Origin: a virus
Taxonomy: Duplodnaviria; Heunggongvirae; Uroviricota; Caudoviricetes
IMG/VR virus record: IMGVR_UViG_2778261689_000008
Span: 1-28,040 of that record
DNA: 28,040 bases
Direction: 5' to 3' (one strand)
The notes beneath the pieces were generated by a model, which saw nothing but the letters and a program-made list of their open reading frames with translations, did no database searches and was not told where the DNA came from. Positions within the stretch are counted from its first letter, which is position 1; every line of letters begins with the position of its first letter. A program made the position numbers and the translations under genes. This document shows positions 10,381 to 28,040 of this stretch, in pieces.

Positions 10381-11876
10381 TATGCAGACTCCTCTGAATA
10401 CTGAAGACGGAACTGGTTAACCACGGCAAAGACACGCAACTGGTTAACATAGTCAGGCGGGAACAGCGTGTTCAGGCGGTTCGGATCGCTGGCATCACGC
10501 TCCACAACCAGGTACTGCTTAAACAGTTCGTAGTTTTCCACGATCCCCGCACGCTCAAGCTGACGGTAGGTTGCCAGCAGTTCCCCTTTGATCACCGCCG
10601 GGGTGACAATCGCCTGACCGGGACCAAAGCGGGTACCGTCACTGGCAAGCTTGTGACGCCCGTACTTACTGGTAATGACGGATTTCAGTTTGCGCAGTAC
10701 ATACGCGCTGGTATGCAGTGTCTCACTGTCGAGGTAGCTGTTATCCGCAACCCCGTAAGCGTTTTTCCTGTACGTGGTGACATCACGCTGAATGCGCAGT
10801 ACCCCGCTTTCGACATACGCCGTTGCCACGCCATGAGACAGCAGGGTCTGTTGTTCGGTCATCGTGAACCGTTTCCCCTTCGGCGCAGGCAGCATACCCA
10901 CCATCTCACCGGTCTGCGTGGGACGTGCCGGATCGTTGCGGATAAACACCGCTGCGCGGGCGGTACGGCTGGCTGCCAGCTCGTCGGCAGGCGTCTGGGT
11001 CTCTTTTTCGTACCCCGCCAGGGTGATGTGCTGCTGGTTAAACTGGTCACCTGCGTTCACCAGTTCTGACAGTGTGCCGGCCTTTGCCGTATACACATGA
11101 CCATACAGCTGACGCGCATAGCTCCAGCGACCGCTGGTATCGTTCATCTCGGTCACCAGCGTGTTAACAGAGGCCGTGTCGTTGAACGGCAGACCGATAT
11201 AATCAAACGGCTCATCCGCCATTGCAGCCACCGCGCCGGTGAGAACCGGAGCGCCCGTTCCGGCGGTCCCCGTCGCCACGGCAATCTGTACGCCCGCTGG
11301 CAGCACTTCGCCCCCACCGAAGCCGTAGTAATTGAGGCTGACAGGAATTTCATTCCCGCAAAGCCCCTTATGGCGAGCGGTCAATGTAACCACACCAGCC
11401 GAAGATGAGGCCGTAAACGGCAGGGCCGGAACGGCATTGATGGCATCTTTGATACTGCTGGCAATCGTCGCGACGTTATCGCCGTTGGTCACCGGTGCCT
11501 GCACGCGGGTACGTCCCACATAAACATTCACCGTGCCGGTTTCGGTTGCTGCCCCGGTCACCGTCAGCGTAACTGTTGCCGCCGCGCCTGTGGATTCAGG
11601 AACGGCAATCACATACAGCTCGCCAAACGGGTCGGTCTGGCGATAAGCCTCGACCATACGCGCCAGCTGACTTCCCGCACCACAAATCTGGCGTGCATAG
11701 TCTGCCGACGGCATCAGTACCAGACTGTTGGCAACAATCTCTGCACCGTTATTGGCATGACCAATCAGCAGCGATGCTCCGCTGTCCTGTGCAGTATTCG
11801 CCGCCTGGTTATCCATTTCCGCATAAAACAACGGAACCAGCGTATTCGACGGAATGGTGTTAAAGCTTATCGTCAT
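10380..11876 (-). CDS. Contractile tail sheath protein
   Basis: 498 aa; first large gene of the tail module, followed by tube and chaperone. Confidence 0.75.
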   Translation of the reverse strand: MTISFNTIPSNTLVPLFYAEMDNQAANTAQDSGASLLIGHANNGAEIVANSLVLMPSADYARQICGAGSQLARMVEAYRQTDPFGELYVIAVPESTGAAATVTLTVTGAATETGTVNVYVGRTRVQAPVTNGDNVATIASSIKDAINAVPALPFTASSSAGVVTLTARHKGLCGNEIPVSLNYYGFGGGEVLPAGVQIAVATGTAGTGAPVLTGAVAAMADEPFDYIGLPFNDTASVNTLVTEMNDTSGRWSYARQLYGHVYTAKAGTLSELVNAGDQFNQQHITLAGYEKETQTPADELAASRTARAAVFIRNDPARPTQTGEMVGMLPAPKGKRFTMTEQQTLLSHGVATAYVESGVLRIQRDVTTYRKNAYGVADNSYLDSETLHTSAYVLRKLKSVITSKYGRHKLASDGTRFGPGQAIVTPAVIKGELLATYRQLERAGIVENYELFKQYLVVERDASDPNRLNTLFPPDYVNQLRVFAVVNQFRLQYSEESA

Positions 11877-19076: not shown

Positions 19077-19576
19077 GATTCGATGATTTTCAGAAACGGG
19101 TTAGTGGCTTTCTTCTTCCCCGCCAGGCCAATCAGACGCTGGCGGCTGCTGGGGTCGAGTCCGAGCATTGCCCCCGTACTGCTCATCTCGGACTCCTGTT
19201 CTTTTTTGGCGGTCAGCTCCGGATTTTTGACCATACCGCCCATTGCACCGGTGATGGTGTTGCCCTGTCTGGCAATATTTTTCACGGCACGTCGCCAGAA
19301 CTCGTAGGCCACGCACCACCGCTCAAGCACCGCAAGGTCAGTCACGCACAGCAGGCCCTGACCGCAGAGTTCTTTAGTTGTCAGTTGCCACATGATCGTG
19401 GCGAGAGGGAGATCTTCTTCAGCGAACCACTCCGGTGGCTCAACACCTTTGATGGGCGTAAAAACAGGTTCATCTTTGTTCAGGGCTCGCTTGCCGGGGT
19501 TTCCGGCCAGCGCCTTGCGCGCCGTTGGCTTGGGGCGACGCCCGGAACGCCCCGCCGTTCCAGCCATATGCGGCAC
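19073..19576 (-). CDS. Terminase small subunit (P27-like), GTG start
   Basis: 167 aa with N-terminal [22 protein letters not shown] motif typical of P27-family small terminases. Confidence 0.75.
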
Positions 19577-21287: not shown

Positions 21288-21760
21288 ACCTCAATCTCTC
21301 TGACCATTCCGCCAGCTTCTTTGAATTTTGCAATCAGGTTGTCAGCCTTATGCTCGAACTGACCATAACCAGCCCCCGGCAGTGAAGCCCAGATATTGCT
21401 GCAACGGTCGATTGCCTGACGGATATCACCGCGATCAATCATCGGTAAAGCGCCACGTTCTTTAATCTGCTGCAATGCCACTGCGTCCTGGCTTTTGGGG
21501 GAGAAGTCTTTCAGGCCAAGCTGCTTACGGTAAGCATCCCACCAGCGTGAAAGAAGCTGATAACGCCCGGCTGCTGTTGATTTGAGTTTTGGGTTTAGCG
21601 TGACAAGTTTGCGAGGATGATCGGAGTAATCAGTAAATAGCTCTCCGCCTACAATGACGTCATAACCATGATTTCTGGTTTTCTGCCGTCCGTTATCCGT
21701 TCCTTCTGACCATGCCACCATATCGAGGAAAGCCTTACGCTGAGGATTAAGATTTTGCAT
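21284..21760 (-). CDS. R: Endolysin, lambda R-type lytic transglycosylase
   Basis: 158 aa; [57 protein letters not shown] is near-identical to lambda R as I recall it. Confidence 0.9.
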
Positions 21761-22064
21761 TTTTCACCCCTGTCAGTCGTTCCCAGAAGTACGTCAGTGC
21801 AACCGAACCCATCGCACCACTAATCCCCGCTGTCGCGAGAATCATGTAAATACTGAATCCACTTTCGATGCTGATCAGGCCACCAATAACACCGGTGAAT
21901 CCTGATACCACTATCTGAGCCAGAGCATTTATCCAACTCCACGTTGCTTTACTCTGCTTCACATCTATCAGGTAGCGGACTAGACCGCCCCAACCTGCGA
22001 TGATCAGCAAAACGAGCCAGAACGCTCCGGCAAGGCTCTCTTTTTCGTGCATATGAATAGCCAA
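21747..22064 (-). CDS. Holin (TTG start with a downstream in-frame ATG, M-A-I-H-M)
   Basis: 105 aa with three hydrophobic segments, immediately upstream of and overlapping the endolysin. Confidence 0.7.
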   Translation of the reverse strand: MAIHMHEKESLAGAFWLVLLIIAGWGGLVRYLIDVKQSKATWSWINALAQIVVSGFTGVIGGLISIESGFSIYMILATAGISGAMGSVALTYFWERLTGVKNAKS

Positions 22065-22168
22065 TGTTTCGCCGCCGACAAAAGGCCGGGACGTTAAATG
22101 TCAGAAATCAGGCTCACGGGGTAATTTAACGACAAAGCACGGAGTTGATGCTCCCCGCAAGCCTGGAA

Positions 22169-22193
22169 TAAAAAAGCCAGCATGTAGCTGGCA
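22169..22193 (-). terminator. Intrinsic terminator, tR'-like, about 190 nt downstream of Q
   Basis: On the minus strand: GCCAGC-UACAU-GCUGGC (6-bp stem, 5-nt loop) followed by UUUUUU; the distance from the Q stop matches the roughly 190-nt late leader RNA of lambdoid phages. Confidence 0.5.
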
Positions 22194-22269
22194 ACAGAGG
22201 GTTAAGCAATATCAACTCAACAGTTGAAGACACCCTGGCTGGGGTAGGTTGGAAGGCTACTCACCGTCC

Positions 22270-22307
22270 AGAAACAGAAAAGCCCAAAGTTTTAAACCTC
22301 GGGCTTG
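22270..22307 (-). terminator. Second hairpin plus U-rich tract inside the late leader (candidate pause/terminator or qut-associated structure)
   Basis: AAGCCC...GGGCUU stem with an internally paired loop, followed by UUCUGUUUCUGG on the minus strand; 70-100 nt downstream of the Q stop. Confidence 0.3.
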
Positions 22308-22373
22308 AATTTGGATTACTGCCAGTGCGTACAACATTGGCAAAATATCAGATTTACACGAAATATATGCTTT

Positions 22374-23063
22374 TTAATCCAGTTTTGCAATACTTTGCTG
22401 TGAAAATGTCGTCTTTTGTTTTGAACGTGTTTTCGTTAAAAGCAATAAAGCTTGGCTATCAAGCTGTAGAAAAATGTGCTTCATTGCAACCCAGCGTTCA
22501 GTAAATGTCTCAGACCAGTTTTTTGATGTCACTCCCACCAGTGATGCCAGCTCCTGGTATTCATAGGTCTTACGCCCTGCCAGCTCGTTCTTCACATCCT
22601 GTGCCGCCAGCCAGATCAACTTCTTTAAGCGTTCCAGTGTCTTACTGGCAATTTTTCTTTTACCTAACAGAGCCTTAAACTCGTTCCATGCCCACTGCGT
22701 TATGGCAACCTGATGCTCCCAGCGAACACTTTCGCTGTAACTCCACAGCAACCACGCTTTCTGATGTTCTTCGAGAGACAGAACCGCGCGGCGCCATGAA
22801 GATGTTGAGAACTCAACCTGGCTGACCAGTGCAATGGATGAACCTTTTGCGTACGACTGCTTACCGGAAATCGGCGGATTATCCAGCGTAATCATCTTGC
22901 CCGTTACCTCATCCAGAATGCGCGGCTTCTTTCGTTTATATGTACCAGTATCAAATTGTGCATGCTCCAGCCAGGCTTCAAGCTGGCCTTTCGTTGCTCC
23001 GCTCAAATCAGCAGTAGCCACAATGAGTTGCTCGCGGACATACTGTAAATATTGGGTATTCAT
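22374..23063 (-). CDS. Late-gene antiterminator Q
   Basis: 229 aa directly upstream of the late leader and lysis genes and downstream of rusA/ylcG. Confidence 0.7.
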   Translation of the reverse strand: MNTQYLQYVREQLIVATADLSGATKGQLEAWLEHAQFDTGTYKRKKPRILDEVTGKMITLDNPPISGKQSYAKGSSIALVSQVEFSTSSWRRAVLSLEEHQKAWLLWSYSESVRWEHQVAITQWAWNEFKALLGKRKIASKTLERLKKLIWLAAQDVKNELAGRKTYEYQELASLVGVTSKNWSETFTERWVAMKHIFLQLDSQALLLLTKTRSKQKTTFSQQSIAKLD

Positions 23064-23200
23064 GCGGCAGCTCCTTTCAGTGTTTTGGCGTAATTCTTCA
23101 GTATCCGGTAATCGGTCAAAACAGAACCGGGGAAACGATATAAGCGCAGGCGCATCCAGCGGTGGCGAAGACGTTCTGCCATATAAGACTCAAACATCAT
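23060..23200 (-). CDS. ylcG: YlcG-like small protein (46 aa; not in the supplied track)
   Basis: Translates [46 protein letters not shown]; ATGA overlap with the rusA stop and with the Q start; same position as ylcG in DLP12. Confidence 0.6.
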
Positions 23201-23559
23201 TCATTCCCCAGTTCAGTGATGGTCAGCTCCAGCTTCCCACCTTTGGTAACGGGCATCTTCACAACACGGTAATCAACGACCTGAACATCATCCAGCCAGA
23301 AACCTGCTTTGGTGAGTGCGTCAAAAGCGGCTTTTTGCAGATTATCCAGGTCACGGCGACGGCGATCCGGCATGTGGCACTCAATACGGATTTTCACAGG
23401 CATAGCCAGGCCGATATCCAGCATTGCGTTTTTAATGATTCGGGCGACGTTATCGCGGTATGCCTGCCCCTCTGCGCTGACGTGCGTGCGCCCGCGATTA
23501 TGGCGGTAATAGCGATTATTGCTCGGAGGCCAGGGTAATGTGATGCTGTAGGTATTCAC
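23197..23559 (-). CDS. rusA: Holliday junction resolvase RusA
   Basis: 120 aa; [10 protein letters not shown] ... [29 protein letters not shown] matches RusA. Confidence 0.9.
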
Positions 23560-23846
23560 GCCTTAATACCCCCCTCTTTCAGCCAGATAACCTGTGTTCT
23601 CGCCATACCTTCCAGCGCGCATTCTTTTGCATACTCAGCATCGACAAAATGTGTGCGGCGGTCGATTTCGTCGTGACAGGCAGAACATGCGATGGTGGCA
23701 ATCAGGTCTGGCGGTTTGATACCGGTACCGCACAATCCAGCCAGCCGGATATGTGCCAGTACAGACGTTTCAGAATTGCCATTACATACGCCAGGGATTC
23801 TTACCTGGCATTCCCGACCACGCGCTGCTTTTCTCAAATCAGCCAT
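23556..23846 (-). CDS. ybcO: YbcO-like protein (DUF1364, Cys-rich putative nuclease)
   Basis: Start trimmed to [23 protein letters not shown] (96 aa); cysteine cluster; position between ninE and rusA as in DLP12. Confidence 0.7.
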
Positions 23847-24009
23847 GATTCCTCCTTGCTGCCAGTCGCAACCATTTTTTATCAACCAGGCTGGCGGTAT
23901 ATCCGAGCAGAGTTGGTATTTCGGATGGCTTCAGCTCAGGTTTACGCTTACGACGATTTGGTACTTTGTAGATGTGTCCGTTCATGACACGAATAAGCGG
24001 TGTAGCCAT
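23839..24009 (-). CDS. ninE: NinE-like small protein (56 aa; not in the supplied track)
   Basis: Translates [56 protein letters not shown]; 1-nt overlap with the ybcN stop; overlaps the ybcO start. Confidence 0.6.
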   Translation of the reverse strand: MATPLIRVMNGHIYKVPNRRKRKPELKPSEIPTLLGYTASLVDKKWLRLAARRNHG

Positions 24010-24464
24010 TACGCCTCCTGCTTGTCGCGCAGCAGCTGGAACTCGCAGCTCTGCGGAATAGTCAGGTGGCAGCCAATATTCATCGCCCAGGCTTCAACCT
24101 TACACAGGAAGACATACATCTCTCCGGTATCGAGATCGGAGGTATGACGTAATGACTGAATGGTGGTGATTTCACCGGTTACGACATCAACCAGTTCTTT
24201 GGTTTCATAACCGAGATAAGTGTGTTTGAGTGCATCTTTTACCCATACTGCAGTAGCGAACGTTTTCCCCCTGCTGATGAGGTATTCGCTGATTTCGCTG
24301 TACCACATGTGGCTGAGTGCATTCTGGGAAAGACTGCGTCTCTCGCGCCACGGTTTAAGCACCATGCGAAAGCATTTTCCGTCCTCCAGATAAGGCTGGA
24401 TCTGCTGACCGATAGCGGTGAAGTTACCGCGATGCAATTTGATACCGTCTTGTGGGAGGTTCAC
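24009..24464 (-). CDS. ybcN: YbcN-like nin-region protein
   Basis: 151 aa; GTG start with GGAGGTGA upstream; position and size match DLP12 ybcN. Confidence 0.7.
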
Positions 24465-24507
24465 GCTTCACCTCCGCAGAGGTCAAACGCTAGATGCAAA
24501 GAATTGC

Positions 24508-24626
24508 AGGTGCATTTCTGCATCTGTGAAGGGAGAAGAGAGTTTGGATTGTATGTGCGCATAAACGTCCCCGTTTAGCGCAGAAGTCACCAGAGTTGTT
24601 CAGGCTCCGATGACATGATTATGGCG
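24508..24626. repeat. 119-bp direct repeat, copy A (upstream of ybcN)
   Basis: About 110 of 119 positions identical to 26508-26626 with no indels; contains a near-palindromic 18-mer (24508-24525) and a 10-bp-stem hairpin (24557-24581). Confidence 0.85.
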
Positions 24627-24651
24627 AGTTGATTATCGCAAATCAAAGGTT

Positions 24652-25008
24652 TTAATTGTGCTTTATTCCTTCAAGCGTTGCCTTCATACCAACCAAAGAA
24701 ATGTTTAGCTCTCCAACTTTCTCAGGGCTATATAATTCAGAATGAAGCCAATATTCTGATTTATCTAAACATCTTTTAGCCAGCTCTCGATCAAAGTCTA
24801 CGACTTGGGAAGACGCTTCATACCAAAGCCTATAAAGTTTTTCTTCTTCGTTTGGGTTATTAGGCTCACCACGTTTTAATTTTTCAGTATATAAAATTGT
24901 TGAACAAATCGCAGGAGTTAATCCAGTGATTGCCCTCTGCCGCAGATCGGATTTGTTTGTTATCCACCCTAACAGACGATCTCCCATCCATGTGATAATT
25001 GTATCCAT
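24652..25008 (-). CDS. AT-rich orphan protein, 118 aa, no recognised family
   Basis: Track ORF, visibly AT-rich relative to flanking phage genes; GAAGGG 9 nt upstream of the ATG. Confidence 0.55.
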   Translation of the reverse strand: MDTIITWMGDRLLGWITNKSDLRQRAITGLTPAICSTILYTEKLKRGEPNNPNEEEKLYRLWYEASSQVVDFDRELAKRCLDKSEYWLHSELYSPEKVGELNISLVGMKATLEGIKHN

Positions 25009-25469
25009 GCTTTAGCCCTTCTTAGTAAATAGTGTGTAGGGCGACTGAAGGACCGAGTTTATGCTTTTTCGCATTGCTTTCAGTTAGTACACCGGTATCG
25101 CACCGGAAACAATCCTACGGCAAATTGGTTGTCTGACCTCTCGGTTTTTCGTGCATTAACCGATACCCACTACAGTCTCGGCGAAAGCTGCACACCCCCA
25201 GGGTGTACTGGTAGCACTCGGCACAGCCTAGCACGCCACTTTCTTCTCACTATCCAGTCTAATTTTATCCCCTAGTCAGACACTCAGATGTAGTGCTCCG
25301 CAGCGGCATGCGGGGGAATACAAAAACTCGGACAAAATTGGGCCCTCCTTTTTGAATCACTCGCGGGGATGTAGTTATTAATACATGGAAAAAGATCTGT
25401 TTTCAAATCCAACATTATATGGTTTCAATACCACGGGGTGGCTATGTGTTTCTCATTGTTAATTGGAAT
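25009..25469 (-). other. ORF-free 460-bp region rich in short stems; candidate structured non-coding RNA or regulatory region
   Basis: No ORF of 60 aa or more on either strand and only 15-20 codon ORFs with weak RBSs by manual scan; multiple short inverted repeats (ccggtatcgcaccgg, acaccc-cca-gggtgt, ccgca-gcggca-tgcgg, tcggtt...aaccga, gggccc). Confidence 0.3.
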
Positions 25470-26078
25470 CTACTGTAATCGATCCGAACGTAAATGCGGC
25501 AAAACTCGACTCCACTTATCATCCTGCCACGGCCGGAATTTTACATGCGCCGTTTCTCTGGCAAGGATTGCTCGCGCCTTGCTGAGTATCAGGGGATATT
25601 CCTGACTGATAGAAGTAAAGCGACCGGCTTCGCGGTGCTCCGCAACCTGAAGAAGTGGAGTAACGTTCTGGCAGGCGATTAACATCGTATCACTTGCTCG
25701 CCATAACCAGGCGAGTGTGCAAAGTTCGTTATCAGTGAATTGTTTTGTGATTGGTGATTGTTGAACTTCTCGATCGAGAATATCCAGCACCCAGCGGCGG
25801 AATTCTTTGGCCACAGGAGTACGAGCAAACATGGCGATCAAATGGGCTCCGCGAAGGCTAAATACTCGAGACTCCTGCATTCCACGAGGGGTGGTCACTT
25901 TGACCACCCTTGTCATCATATCTGTGAATTCATCTGAGTGCCGAGAGTAAATGCGCTGAACTGCTTTATCGTCCGCATATTCCAGTGCTAAACCAACTTC
26001 AGTGGCAGTAAGCCAAATTCTGTTATTGTGGCAAATCGGGGTAAACGTCGTTTTGTGGAATGCTAATTGAGTAGTCAT
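25470..26078 (-). CDS. Bro-N / antirepressor-like protein (tentative)
   Basis: 202 aa; the N-terminal half (FHKTTFTPICHNNRIWLTATEVGLALEYADDKA...) resembles Bro-N/KilA-N antirepressor domains. Confidence 0.55.
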   Translation of the reverse strand: MTTQLAFHKTTFTPICHNNRIWLTATEVGLALEYADDKAVQRIYSRHSDEFTDMMTRVVKVTTPRGMQESRVFSLRGAHLIAMFARTPVAKEFRRWVLDILDREVQQSPITKQFTDNELCTLAWLWRASDTMLIACQNVTPLLQVAEHREAGRFTSISQEYPLILSKARAILARETAHVKFRPWQDDKWSRVLPHLRSDRLQ

Positions 26079-26233
26079 AGTATCACCTCATCAGGTTAAC
26101 CATCACCACCAACGACGCCAATCGACTGGTGGTGAACTGTGTAAGGTTGGCGTAACCGGCTACTCAAACCCGGCGCTTCCGAAGAAGCCCTCACACAGCC
26201 CACCATAATTTGGGCATAGCCGTGCTTAGCGCA

Positions 26234-26256
26234 CAAAAAAACCGCTTAACGCGGTA
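26234..26256 (-). terminator. Intrinsic terminator-like hairpin with U7
   Basis: Minus strand: ACCGC-GUUAA-GCGGU followed by UUUUUUUG; lies between the small hydrophobic ORF and the Bro-N-like gene. Confidence 0.4.
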
Positions 26257-26341
26257 TGCGTTGAGTAGTATCCCGGGACGCCAATCCCGTGTGCCGATTT
26301 TGCGGCAACGCACAGAATATAGCGCCGGATAAATCATGTCG

Positions 26342-26431
26342 TCAACCCCAGTAAATGGACACCATGATGATCACAGCCATAGCTGCTACAACAGTTACAA
26401 CTACCTCAGGCCAAAACATAACGATTTCCAT
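26342..26431 (-). CDS. Small hydrophobic peptide, 29 aa (trimmed from the 82-aa track ORF)
   Basis: MEIVMFWPEVVVTVVAAMAVIIMVSIYWG with AAAGGTGAT immediately before the ATG; the longer track ORF would start inside repeat B, which is non-coding in copy A. Confidence 0.35.
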   Translation of the reverse strand: MEIVMFWPEVVVTVVAAMAVIIMVSIYWG

Positions 26432-26507
26432 ATCACCTTTAGCCGCCAGACGAATAGAGACTCCCAATTCTGGCTGTCGAAGTAAAACACCGAATGTAAA
26501 AAATCGT

Positions 26508-26626
26508 AGGTGCATTTCTGCATCTGTGAATGGAGATGAGAGTTTGGATTGTGTGTGCGCATAAACGTCCCCGTTTAGCGCAGAAGTCACCGGAGTTTTT
26601 TAGGCTCCGATGACAATATTATGGCT
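26508..26626. repeat. 119-bp direct repeat, copy B (exactly 2000 bp from copy A)
   Basis: See copy A; the hairpin (26557-26581) and the near-palindromic 18-mer (26508-26525) are conserved without change. Confidence 0.85.
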
Positions 26627-26709
26627 TTTTTATTTCTAAATTCAAAACTTGAAAATATTAAGATTCGCTTTTAAATCAACCCTAAACAACTGAAGATAAC
26701 ATCTGATAG

Positions 26710-27669
26710 TCAGCTAATTGCAAAGATATTAAAAATAACTTTAGGGAGTGCGAAAGATGAAATAAAAAGCACAACCATAAAAATGGCATGCTTAATAAAT
26801 GATGAGCTTGTAAAAAAAGCTCCTCCCTTGCTAATTCCTGCCATAAAAACAAAGATAAAGCTAATTAAGCACGACCATATCACTAACAAAACTGAGATTG
26901 ACATGCTTAAAGACATATCGCGAGAAAATACGTTTACTGAAATAGAAATGAAGGTAAAGAAAGAAGCAAATAAAGCAATGACACCCAGCATTGAGTTCCT
27001 TGCTGTAATTACTTCCGATTCAAAGCTTTTAACTTTCTCATGTATATCTTTTTCAGCATTTGATAATGTTGCATCAAATTGCTCAATCTTTGCAGTTTGC
27101 TGAGATAATGAAGACATTACCTTACCTATTTTTCTTTTAGTATCATTAATATTCTTTTTGCTCTTATTCAACTCTTGCGAAAAATTGGTTAGTTGATCAT
27201 TGATATTTTTCCAGAGGATGTTATCAATATCACTTTTTGTATATTTTTTTACATTCTCTTTATTAAAAGAAATTGTAGATTCAGAATTATTATTAACAAA
27301 GTAATTAGATAAAATGGCATTAGAGACAGTATTATCCATCACCGGCACAGTTGCTTTTGAACTGTATTTTATAGCTTCATGCAACATTTCTTTTTCATTA
27401 ACAAAAAGAGAGGTTTTTATTAAGTTTTGTGATGCCGCGTCTTTGATAGATATACTTTCCCGCTCTTTATTTGAAGCTGTTGCAGTTTTATTATCTATCT
27501 GCAAATTACTAATTTTTTGCACCCCTCCTGTATACGTAGATGTACTATTCGATACTTGTGAATTAGAATAAAGTGAATGATGCGCAGTTCTTTTTGCCAT
27601 GTCATCGTTGACTATAGCATTATTTTTTGCAGTTCTTTTTATATCCTTTTTATTATCATCCTTATTCAT
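26710..27669 (-). CDS. AT-rich protein, 319 aa: Asn/Ser/Lys-rich coiled-coil N-terminal region plus three C-terminal transmembrane helices; candidate exclusion/abortive-infection effector
   Basis: Track ORF; strongly AT-rich; GAGGTG RBS; C-terminal hydrophobic segments LGVIALFASFFTFISISVNVF, SISVLLVIWSCLISFIFVFMAGI, AIFMVVLFISSFALPKVIFNIFAI; 14-bp gap to the upstream ORF. Confidence 0.65.
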   Translation of the reverse strand: MNKDDNKKDIKRTAKNNAIVNDDMAKRTAHHSLYSNSQVSNSTSTYTGGVQKISNLQIDNKTATASNKERESISIKDAASQNLIKTSLFVNEKEMLHEAIKYSSKATVPVMDNTVSNAILSNYFVNNNSESTISFNKENVKKYTKSDIDNILWKNINDQLTNFSQELNKSKKNINDTKRKIGKVMSSLSQQTAKIEQFDATLSNAEKDIHEKVKSFESEVITARNSMLGVIALFASFFTFISISVNVFSRDMSLSMSISVLLVIWSCLISFIFVFMAGISKGGAFFTSSSFIKHAIFMVVLFISSFALPKVIFNIFAIS

Positions 27670-27683
27670 TCAGCCACCTCACA

Positions 27684-28040
27684 TTACTGAATTTCATTCA
27701 CTTTACTTAAAAAGGCTTTTTTTGTTTTTTCTGCGGTATATTTATCTTTAAATATAAAACTCTCGATTGTATTCACATCGATCTGTTTCACTAGCATTGG
27801 TTGTTCTCTGACAATATCATATCCTGACATAATCGACAAATGACAATTAAATATGGACTGCTCAAACTCGAATTTTTTATTATACATTAAATTAATATCT
27901 TCAATTATTTCGCTATCATTCTGCATGTTGTTACTAAGATAGTTTTTAACAATCTCTTTGTTTGGGTTGTTGTTTAATTCCGCCTTAACGGCCACCAAGC
28001 CCTGAGAGATCCCCTCATAATTTCCCCAAAGCGTAACCAT
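27684..28040 (-). CDS. AT-rich hypothetical protein; N-terminus may lie beyond the window edge
   Basis: Track ORF reaching the last base of the window; Asn/Lys/Ile-rich; operon-like spacing with the 319-aa gene. Confidence 0.5.
   Translation of the reverse strand: MVTLWGNYEGISQGLVAVKAELNNNPNKEIVKNYLSNNMQNDSEIIEDINLMYNKKFEFEQSIFNCHLSIMSGYDIVREQPMLVKQIDVNTIESFIFKDKYTAEKTKKAFLSKVNEIQ

Follow-up and report, generated by a model that had tools for sequence, protein, structure and literature searches.

We analyzed a 28,040-nucleotide (nt) stretch of DNA from a virus (Caudoviricetes; IMG/VR record IMGVR_UViG_2778261689_000008, positions 1 to 28,040; hereafter the window), in which about 2 kb of DNA upstream of the nin genes is bracketed by two copies, A and B, of a 119-bp direct repeat. 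The repeat is a conserved element, the leader of the nin operon of lambdoid phages, known as ylcH in prophage DLP12 and as orf33 in phage 82, and we proposed that this promoter-leader was probably duplicated by recombination around a composite of exchangeable modules. In this explanation, a sigma-70 promoter would give a transcript that opens with two hairpins, followed by ylcH, an open reading frame (ORF) of 31–33 codons that would be coupled to ninB/ybcN. Copy A would be the working leader of ybcN-ninE-ybcO-rusA-ylcG-Q, and copy B would be a nearly full-length, uncoupled leader of another lineage, left upstream as accessory modules were stacked before the leader through homology-driven recombination (Red/Rad52-type or RecA) between lambdoid phages. 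The bracketed 2 kb would then consist of three separately exchangeable modules: an immI-like antirepressor module, a promoter-bearing RNA of ~330 nt, and a cargo gene. The repeat, the anatomy of the unit, its conservation and covariation, the Rfam and Pfam identities within the segment, and the variation of the cargo were established here; the recombination route, and the status of copy B as mainly a relic, are what we infer. We regard the repeat pair as what modular recombination among phages ordinarily yields, with the RNA as the sole unexpected item.

The two copies (24508–24626 and 26508–26626) are identical at 110 of 119 positions (92.4%), without gaps and with a start-to-start offset of 2000 bp, exactly as an earlier note on this DNA, made from the sequence alone, had described them (two 119-bp copies, ~92% identical, no indels, 2000 bp apart). 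Around copy A, a wider homology covers 24494–24625 (120/132 identical, 90.9%), and the widest window of homology between the copies covers 24479–24634 (134/156, 85.9%); at the same offset, the flanks of both copies are only 28–37% identical. When copy B was compared with other lineages of the leader unit, a diverged alignment spanned ~26645, in the -35 region, to ~26470. The exact 2000-bp spacing is without meaning; the two copies lie at different distances in related prophages (2003, 2322, 1934, 1482, 1242, and ~1234 bp). All genes of the region lie on the minus strand. In the order of transcription, the replication gene P is followed by two AT-rich genes, copy B, a 29-amino-acid (aa) hydrophobic ORF, isrK, C4, the antirepressor gene, an ORF-free stretch, a 118-aa ORF, copy A, and then the nin genes ybcN, ninE, ybcO, rusA, ylcG, and Q; every item that the earlier note had placed in the cassette was recovered on this strand. 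The GC content of the 118-aa orphan is 0.38 and that of a 319-aa gene upstream of copy B is 0.31, compared with 0.50–0.52 for the backbone. The nearest complete genome, that of E. coli L9, is 99.6% identical over 21348–28001 of the window and divergent elsewhere. The features of the locus, all on the minus strand, are as follows.

24009..24464, minus: ybcN, NinB/Orf family, first gene of the nin operon, translationally coupled to ylcH
24461..24646, minus: leader unit copy A, the intact nin-operon leader
24652..25008, minus: 118-aa orphan cargo gene, phrog_12412 (predicted four-helix bundle, Enterobacteriaceae only)
25009–25469, minus: ORF-free stretch
25041..25406, minus: candidate structured RNA of ~330 nt (~25370 to ~25041) with its promoter-like site
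25470..26078, minus: antirepressor gene (Bro-N and P22AR C-terminal domains; PHROG anti-repressor Ant)
26096–26206, minus: 36-aa ORF with an ATG start lying over C4, the positional analogue of orf45
26125..26210, minus: C4 antisense RNA, RF01695 (74.8 bits against a gathering score of 45, full model 1–87)
26235..26345, minus: isrK small RNA (sRNA), RF01394 at 26235–26307 (58.7 bits against a gathering score of 50), with a promoter-like site and a terminator
26342..26431, minus: 29-aa hydrophobic ORF, MEIVMFWPEVVVTVVAAMAVIIMVSIYWG
26470..26645, minus: leader unit copy B, the second leader copy
26710..27669, minus: AT-rich 319-aa gene, phrog_25335, for a predicted membrane/coiled-coil protein, upstream of copy B

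In copy A, a -35 hexamer (TTGATT, 24646–24641) lies within a TTGAT-N8-ATCAA palindrome and is followed by a -10 hexamer (CATAAT, 24623–24618), hairpin 1 (24614–24586, loop CCUGAACAA), hairpin 2 (24581–24557, loop GGGA), and the ylcH ORF (24562–24461), whose TGA overlaps the GTG start of ybcN (GTGA at 24461–24464). Copy B has a -35-like TTGAAT (26645–26640), a 16-nt spacer, CATAAT (26623–26618), and both hairpins at equivalent positions (26614–26586 and 26581–26557); its ylcH-like ORF (26562–26401) extends to 53 aa, and the normal end and the coupling to a ninB gene are lost. The overlap of the ylcH stop with a NinB/Orf start, which marks a nin leader, is therefore found in copy A and not in copy B.

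We addressed the conservation of the unit by an exact-word scan of IMG/VR with a 21-nt core, which yielded more than 120 loci with 104–110 distinct versions. Among these, conservation sets in abruptly at TTGAT(T), which represents both the -35 element and one arm of the TTGAT-N8-ATCAA palindrome, and CATAAT follows 17 nt on; the sequences 5' of the -35 element are unrelated. In one lineage, an extended -10 element (TGTTATAAT) stands in place of the -35 and -10 elements. Hairpin 1, of ~10 bp, starts a few bases past the -10 element and occurs with more than 10 alternative covarying stems around a conserved 9-nt loop (YCUGAACAM). Hairpin 2 occurs in five covarying stem versions with an invariant GGGA loop, which is at the same time the Shine–Dalgarno (SD) sequence of ylcH, and the AUG (or GUG) start codon lies within the 3' arm. 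Beyond hairpin 2 follow a C-rich, G-poor stretch, a near-invariant core, and the end of ylcH, which holds the SD sequence of the next gene. A plain MAFFT alignment of 106 units left the stems out of register, and pair counts were therefore anchored on the loops. By these counts, hairpin 2 was paired in 94.7% and hairpin 1 in 80.7%, the latter figure including some mis-anchored sequences, compared with 31–52% in controls in which the pairing partner was shifted along the alignment. Folds of single sequences also showed both hairpins (z = -4.7 for copy A, -6.0 for copy B, and -3.6 for phi80).

In 103 of the 109 distinct units, the ylcH ORF, of 31–33 aa, overlaps the following start codon through a terminal ATGA or GTGA, and its three N-terminal versions differ in length by multiples of 3 nt. 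Judged by this pattern, ylcH likely behaves as a real coupled upstream ORF of ybcN/ninB, which would give this small ORF of DLP12 a likely role as the coupled leader of ybcN. Downstream of the unit, the NinB/Orf alleles diverge extremely (YbcN type, lambda-NinB-like types, and 145-aa types), so that conservation is higher in the leader than in the gene behind it. In the IMG/VR loci L040, L070, and L081, ylcH is coupled instead to a 271-aa protein with four CxxCxGxG motifs, the pattern of a DnaJ-type zinc finger. These observations agree with the suggestion in the earlier note that the repeat is a duplicated regulatory module: a promoter-like site, a structured leader, and a coupled upstream ORF are all predicted. 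The sequence at the joint would be a promoter-leader before ninB that is itself under RNA-level and coding constraint.

Several candidate signals in the unit were considered. For the palindrome, a site of the FNR/CRP type was not supported: the half-sites are FNR-like but are spaced by N8 rather than N4, and the Gifsy-1 version of the unit has no palindrome. For hairpin 1, an N/boxB function was rejected, because, in the closest genome, the region from immunity to replication contained no other YCUGAACAM hairpin. The window holds two other YCTGAACAM matches, at 10468–10476 and 19476–19484 (minus strand), in distant structural-gene DNA; the total of three compares with 0.76 expected, and 5 of 100 shuffles reach three. 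We also observed a second CUGAAC-like motif (AAUCUGAACUC, AAUCAGAACAC, or AAUCCAAACUC) at 24535–24550 and at equivalent positions in other units, within the C-rich coding region of ylcH; it echoes the loop of hairpin 1 and might serve as a repeated binding motif for a protein or for Rho.

The unit is widely distributed and occupies a constant position. In a BLAST search against phage genomes, it was present in 29 records, as a single copy in 27 of them, and always directly upstream of ninB/ybcN; the carriers include phage 82, HK639, HK225, phi80, several lambda-like coliphages, and phages of Enterobacter and Klebsiella, and in the K-12 prophage DLP12 the unit is the ylcH region. The genes upstream of these single copies are unrelated and the NinB/Orf genes downstream are divergent, which supports the earlier suggestion that the repeat marks a junction at which cassettes are exchanged. 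The unit was found in ~2750 of 5426 complete E. coli genomes, at a median of one and a maximum of four places per genome, always with ybcN/ninE annotations and only in the nin regions of prophages. A second, partly decayed copy upstream of an isrK/C4-antirepressor cassette was present in ~415 genomes, ~15% of the carriers, and the B junctions were of the window type in ~118 and of the O157 type in 297. The earlier note had named two findings that would overturn its reading, namely related prophages all sharing the two copies as core backbone and a repeat ubiquitous in the host; neither agrees with these numbers.

Parts of the unit have been recorded before. The phage 82 record (GenBank X92588) already annotates orf33, a putative -35/-10, a ribosome-binding site (RBS), and a "possible regulator-binding site"; this sequence and copy A share 93.6% identity, and copy A occupies the same place, directly upstream of orf151/ybcN. 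In the phi80 record (JX871397), IR4 is hairpin 2 of the unit. Phage 82, DLP12, and phi80 each carry one unit, whereas the window has an extra, uncoupled copy 2 kb upstream. The covariation of the hairpins, the coupling of ylcH to ninB across NinB alleles, and a link to a mapped transcription start site (TSS) in Gifsy-1 go beyond these records and are results of this analysis.

The Gifsy-1 link concerns a short version of the unit at 36614–36667 (minus strand) of Gifsy-1 (NC_010392; L177), upstream of STM2620; this gene is the first, and antQ the last, of one operon. It consists of TTGACT-N17-CATAAT, an ACUGG-CCUGAACAA-CCAGU hairpin, an SD sequence, and an ATG. A transcript starting ~7 nt past this -10 element would begin ~1606 nt upstream of the antQ start codon, and published work puts the TSS of the antQ operon 1,600 nt before antQ; expression of IsrK or AnrP increases the mRNA of this operon (PMC4825925). 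Because conservation of the unit begins at the -35 element, an extended -10 variant exists, and the Gifsy-1 homologue coincides with a published TSS, the -35/-10 match of the unit is likely a genuine sigma-70 promoter. Promoter activity in E. coli is inferred from this comparison, and a literature search for promoter data on ylcH/ybcN returned nothing usable. The mapped start of the Gifsy-1 antQ operon is thereby linked to a conserved element common to E. coli phages. In the same neighborhood, the Gifsy-1 gene STMMW_26411, near STM2620, was reported to be induced only anaerobically (Owen et al. 2020, PMC7067206).

The history of copy B can be read in part from its junctions. The B copies before isrK cassettes have one common unit-to-cassette junction, which indicates one ancestral event, and their upstream homology ends at different unit positions (104, 113, 144, and 147). 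The 3' part of copy B in the window resembles the unit of the L040 type up to just before the SD sequence of the downstream gene, and in HR5-1 the 5' half of copy B comes from yet another unit lineage. These features make copy B a nearly whole leader from a foreign lineage and not a target duplication. Copy B has decayed differently in different lineages: in phage IdasGreatGrand, the ATG is changed to ATA, the promoter part is lost, and 4 nt are deleted, and in the O157 type a 4-nt deletion shifts the frame and the RefSeq call is a partial pseudogene. Decay that differs by lineage is more readily explained by a recombination relic than by a second regulator under maintenance. In lambdoid phages, experiments have shown exchange driven by homology over short, diverged stretches, also in the nin region of phi80/DLP12 (PMC3945230). 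The unit is one of the few conserved sequences of this variable region and would therefore serve as a recombination joint; the most economical account is that the conserved leader is this joint and that the stacking of modules left the second copy behind. The arrangement resembles the homology-flanked mosaics of lambdoid phages and modular theory (De Paepe et al. 2014, PMC3945230) in that a short conserved joint lies between exchangeable segments, with breakpoints within the unit and differing cargo on both sides. Unlike the usual joints of such mosaics, the unit itself appears to be a promoter-leader with RNA-level constraints, and it is duplicated in tandem around modules. These results leave current views of phage mosaicism in place, and they define a concrete, widely conserved site for the stacking and exchange of accessory genes in the lambda-like prophages of E. 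coli, Klebsiella, and Enterobacter.

Several observations weigh against this account. In the window, the -35/-10 match of copy B is still good, its two hairpins and its ylcH start are present, and one of its stem pairs is even strengthened from G-U to G-C. No source could be matched to the 125 bp that separate copy B from the isrK promoter. That the 21-nt core never varies in the IMG/VR set is in part built in, since the core was the search word. In Gifsy-1, the hairpin has only 5 bp and the minimum-free-energy fold differs, and the link to the TSS depends on a rounded published figure ("1,600 bases").

The content of the bracketed segment differs among prophages, which supports the earlier description of a swappable unit as far as exchange is concerned, but the segment is a composite and not one unit. 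The strains O157, O26, and O103 carry isrK-C4-ant with a HEPN protein and a 133-aa protein between the two unit copies, HR5-1 and phage PhiR26_1 carry isrK-C4-ant with a 169-aa protein, and phage IdasGreatGrand carries the same cassette set as the window. Two IMG/VR loci, L030 (3271–4661) and L149, have a structured RNA and cargo (a PIN-like or a membrane protein) between units spaced by 1242 and ~1234 bp, respectively, and are without isrK, C4, and ant; the cargo of L030 is a 177-aa PIN-like protein.

About half of the segment, which the earlier note had described as of unknown function, is a module of the well-known isrK/C4-antirepressor kind. The antirepressor gene, with Bro-N (E = 3.8e-10) and P22_AR_C (E = 1.9e-15) domains and a PHROG match to anti-repressor Ant, lies immediately downstream of C4, as in C4-type loci. 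By consensus match, isrK has a promoter-like site (TTGACG-N18-TATATT, 26345–26316) and ends in an intrinsic terminator, a 5-bp GC-rich stem (26255–26241) followed by U7, which is the hairpin-U7 terminator that the earlier note had flagged. A match to c4-a1b1 (RF03163) at 26270–26322 overlaps isrK and, at 39.6 bits, is below the gathering score of 46.7. An Rfam 15 scan of 24300–26800 at E ≤ 5 returned C4, isrK, and c4-a1b1 only, with no match to isrJ or to the leader unit and no family for the ~330-nt RNA. A UUGGCGU heptamer, seen by eye in isrK and in the ant leader, is complementary to ACGCCAA of C4; the RNAduplex energies of C4 with the ant leader and with isrK were indistinguishable from those of shuffles. 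The 36-aa ORF over C4 has its stop at 26096–26098, 17 nt before the ant ATG (26078), and thus lacks AUGA coupling of the orf45 type. The stop codon of the 29-aa hydrophobic ORF overlaps the isrK -35 element; this ORF is retained in three of four copy-B lineages, in one of them with an in-frame 6-nt indel, and a stop codon interrupts the O157-type version.

We found the isrK-C4 segment at other positions in 246 phage records, near ninE in Stx phages and after Q in Gifsy-1, and it is therefore a mobile module of a well-known kind. The module (isrK/a1b1 sites, C4, and Ant) would work like P1 c4-ant and Gifsy-1 isrK-anrP. The immI region of P1/P7 comprises a c4 antisense RNA with a1/b1 and a2/b2 target sites, icd, and ant, and the window resembles it in having a C4-family RNA upstream of an antirepressor and possibly in the heptamer of isrK and the ant leader. 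It differs in lacking icd, in having a Bro-N/P22AR protein instead of P1 Ant1/2, and in that its upstream target region is an independent, terminated sRNA, isrK, with c4-a1b1 under its gathering score. The closer counterpart in layout is isrK-orf45-anrP-isrJ of Gifsy-1 (Hershko-Shalev et al. 2016, PMC4825925), which has its own isrK promoter, a leaky terminator, a conserved RNA/ORF segment, and an antirepressor whose translation is turned on by IsrK. Both the window and Gifsy-1 have the isrK-to-antirepressor layout in a lambdoid prophage with an 82-type Q. The module lies between P and ninB in the window but after Q in Gifsy-1; the ORF over C4 ends 17 nt before ant in the window, whereas orf45 overlaps the antirepressor gene as AUGA; and 3' of ant the window has the ~330-nt RNA, with isrJ not detected, where Gifsy-1 has isrJ.

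Decayed forms of the cassette were also observed. In L006 (E. coli 500111) and ~20 IMG/VR loci, many DLP12-like prophages have lost all of ant but a 3' remnant of 323 or 89 nt, and the structured RNA, a complete or truncated 118-aa gene, and the unit come next; in such prophages, the decayed cassette often lies beside ybcK/emrE.

The most interesting by-product of the analysis is the candidate structured RNA. The 460 bp that the earlier note had described as having no ORF is an ORF-free stretch (25009–25469), as stated, but it holds this conserved candidate RNA. The stretch is ~78–80% identical to Klebsiella phage sequences and has exact 26–29-mers in common with ~50 IMG/VR contigs, and the RNA occurs, as a single copy and unannotated, in 159 of 5426 complete E. 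coli genomes. RNAalifold on 23 distinct versions predicted 86 pairs in 17 helices, three of them long-range, and 18 pairs showed compensatory changes. In the pair-count test, 96.8% of cells were paired, compared with 92.5% in shuffles and 33–46% in controls with shifted pairing partners, and none of 500 shuffles reached the observed value in any of the five measures. Folded as a single sequence, the 461-nt spacer was unremarkable (z = -0.41), and the predicted structure draws its support only from comparison among versions. In the window, a promoter-like site (TTGAAA at 25406–25401, N17, TATTAA at 25383–25378) precedes the RNA. This site is fixed in position, with a variable spacer sequence, across versions (TTGAAA/TTGTAT, N17, TATTAA/TTAAAT/TTATAT), and it puts the 5' end at the first helix. 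In many lineages, for example that of Klebsiella phage Kp4856-1, the RNA ends in a covarying intrinsic terminator ~25–45 nt before the start of the next gene, and in the lineage of the window it runs straight into the RBS of the 118-aa gene, where a hairpin over the RBS replaces the terminator. The genes 3' of the RNA are mutually unrelated and encode the 118-aa family, a small membrane protein, a 183-aa protein with an RX4H motif, or the 177-aa PIN-like protein.

By its conservation and covariation, the ~330-nt RNA is a good candidate for a new structured RNA family. A tRNA/tmRNA search identified it as neither, and a scan of species-representative genomes gave one match, in a metagenome-assembled genome labelled Collinsella, which is uninformative on taxonomic range. 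The layout suggests, by analogy, a cis-acting leader or attenuator, or an RNA-terminator-toxin arrangement. The likeness to riboswitch-like attenuators and to type III toxin-antitoxin systems is one of layout only (promoter, RNA, terminator or RBS hairpin, and cargo gene). A type III (ToxIN-like) system was rejected, because ToxI antitoxins are tandem repeats whereas a search of 24400–26750 found none, and because the downstream proteins belong to unrelated families. Lying beside toxin-like cargo, the unannotated RNA could regulate accessory or defence genes of the prophage. A fuller proposal, which we regard as tentative and rather doubtful, is that a new RNA family gates the cargo and that the duplicated leader forms an Ant-responsive switch with the Q operon. 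The gating would act through the terminator in many lineages and through the RBS-sequestering hairpin in the lineage of the window, and the gated cargo would be swappable and often toxin-like (HEPN-like, PIN-like, a membrane peptide, or the 118-aa orphan) and would lie just upstream of the nin leader.

Other explanations of the repeat pair assign it a different origin or role. Copy B might be a maintained second regulatory module, so that the same promoter-leader serves the antirepressor cassette and the nin/Q operon in response to one signal: if Ant inactivated a repressor of the unit promoter, copy B would provide positive feedback on Ant and copy A would couple Ant to Q. Copy B of the window retains TTGAAT-N16-CATAAT, both hairpins, and the ylcH start, copy B of HR5-1 has a complete 5' half of another lineage with TTGATT, a -10-like site, and the CCUGAACA hairpin, and a TTGAT-N8-ATCAA palindrome overlaps the -35 element in most units (24628–24646 in the window). 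In Gifsy-1, moreover, the operon with the unit-like promoter at its start is transcribed more in response to AnrP and IsrK (PMC4825925). However, isrK has a strong promoter-like site of its own just downstream of copy B, isrK-C4-ant works in other phages without any upstream unit, no regulator is known for the palindrome, which is degraded in copy B of the window, and copy B is without its promoter part and its ylcH ATG in IdasGreatGrand and is a frameshifted pseudogene in the O157 type. We considered a maintained second module to be unlikely, though with an appreciable share of the probability. The repeats might instead matter as a substrate, with recombination between A and B deleting or re-acquiring the cassette and thus producing populations with and without it. 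Red-beta-type recombinases require only ~30–50 bp (PMC3945230), and the copies offer 132 bp at 91%; E. coli contains prophages with one copy as well as prophages with two, and A and B copies have some variant positions in common across prophages. This role appears improbable, since no single-copy unit was recognized as an A/B hybrid left by deletion, the B lineages are 84–100% identical among themselves, a long-term divergence that implies a stable arrangement, and such recombination is a consequence of any direct repeat and not evidence of a selected function.

Direct repeats around foreign-looking DNA, with hairpins and a palindrome at the 5' edge of the unit, also recall the ends or the target duplication of a mobile element, such as a transposon, an integron-like attC cassette, or a site-specific insertion. 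The evidence leaves this origin very improbable. No transposase or integrase was found in or beside the segment among ORFs and annotations, a repeat of 132–176 bp at 86–92% identity is no target-site duplication, and most phages have just one unit, at the same site, whose anatomy is clearly that of gene expression; copy B differs in where its upstream homology breaks off, and the contents are mosaics of independent modules. A transposon or insertion sequence was specifically rejected, with no transposase among ORFs and annotations and no terminal inverted repeats at the cassette ends, as was an integron cassette, with no integrase in the locus and a fixed unit position before ninB (no search was made for attC core sites as such). 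Only the intergenic position speaks for a generic host repeat of the REP/BIME/ERIC kind or for a match by chance, and both were judged negligible: the identity of 110/119 without gaps contrasts with 28–37% in the flanks, isolated phages carry the unit, and the unit is confined to prophage nin regions at a median of one place and a maximum of four per genome. Compared with these alternatives, duplication of the nin leader by modular recombination accounts for the repeat pair best.

The remaining cargo gave few clues to function. The 118-aa protein family is small and confined to Enterobacteriaceae, and neither Pfam nor PADLOC gave a match; its AlphaFold model is a generic four-helix bundle with no match in the PDB at E ≤ 0.001. 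Upstream of copy B, between it and the replication gene P, two very AT-rich genes (GC 0.31–0.32) occupy 26710–28040 on the minus strand. The 319-aa product of one (phrog_25335) has C-terminal hydrophobic segments, and the other encodes a 221-aa hypothetical protein that is cut by the end of the window. This gene pair looks like a separate accessory island outside the bracketed cassette; at the same site, other prophages carry ren, a SNIPE-associated gene, emrE-ybcK, or ybcL-ybcM.

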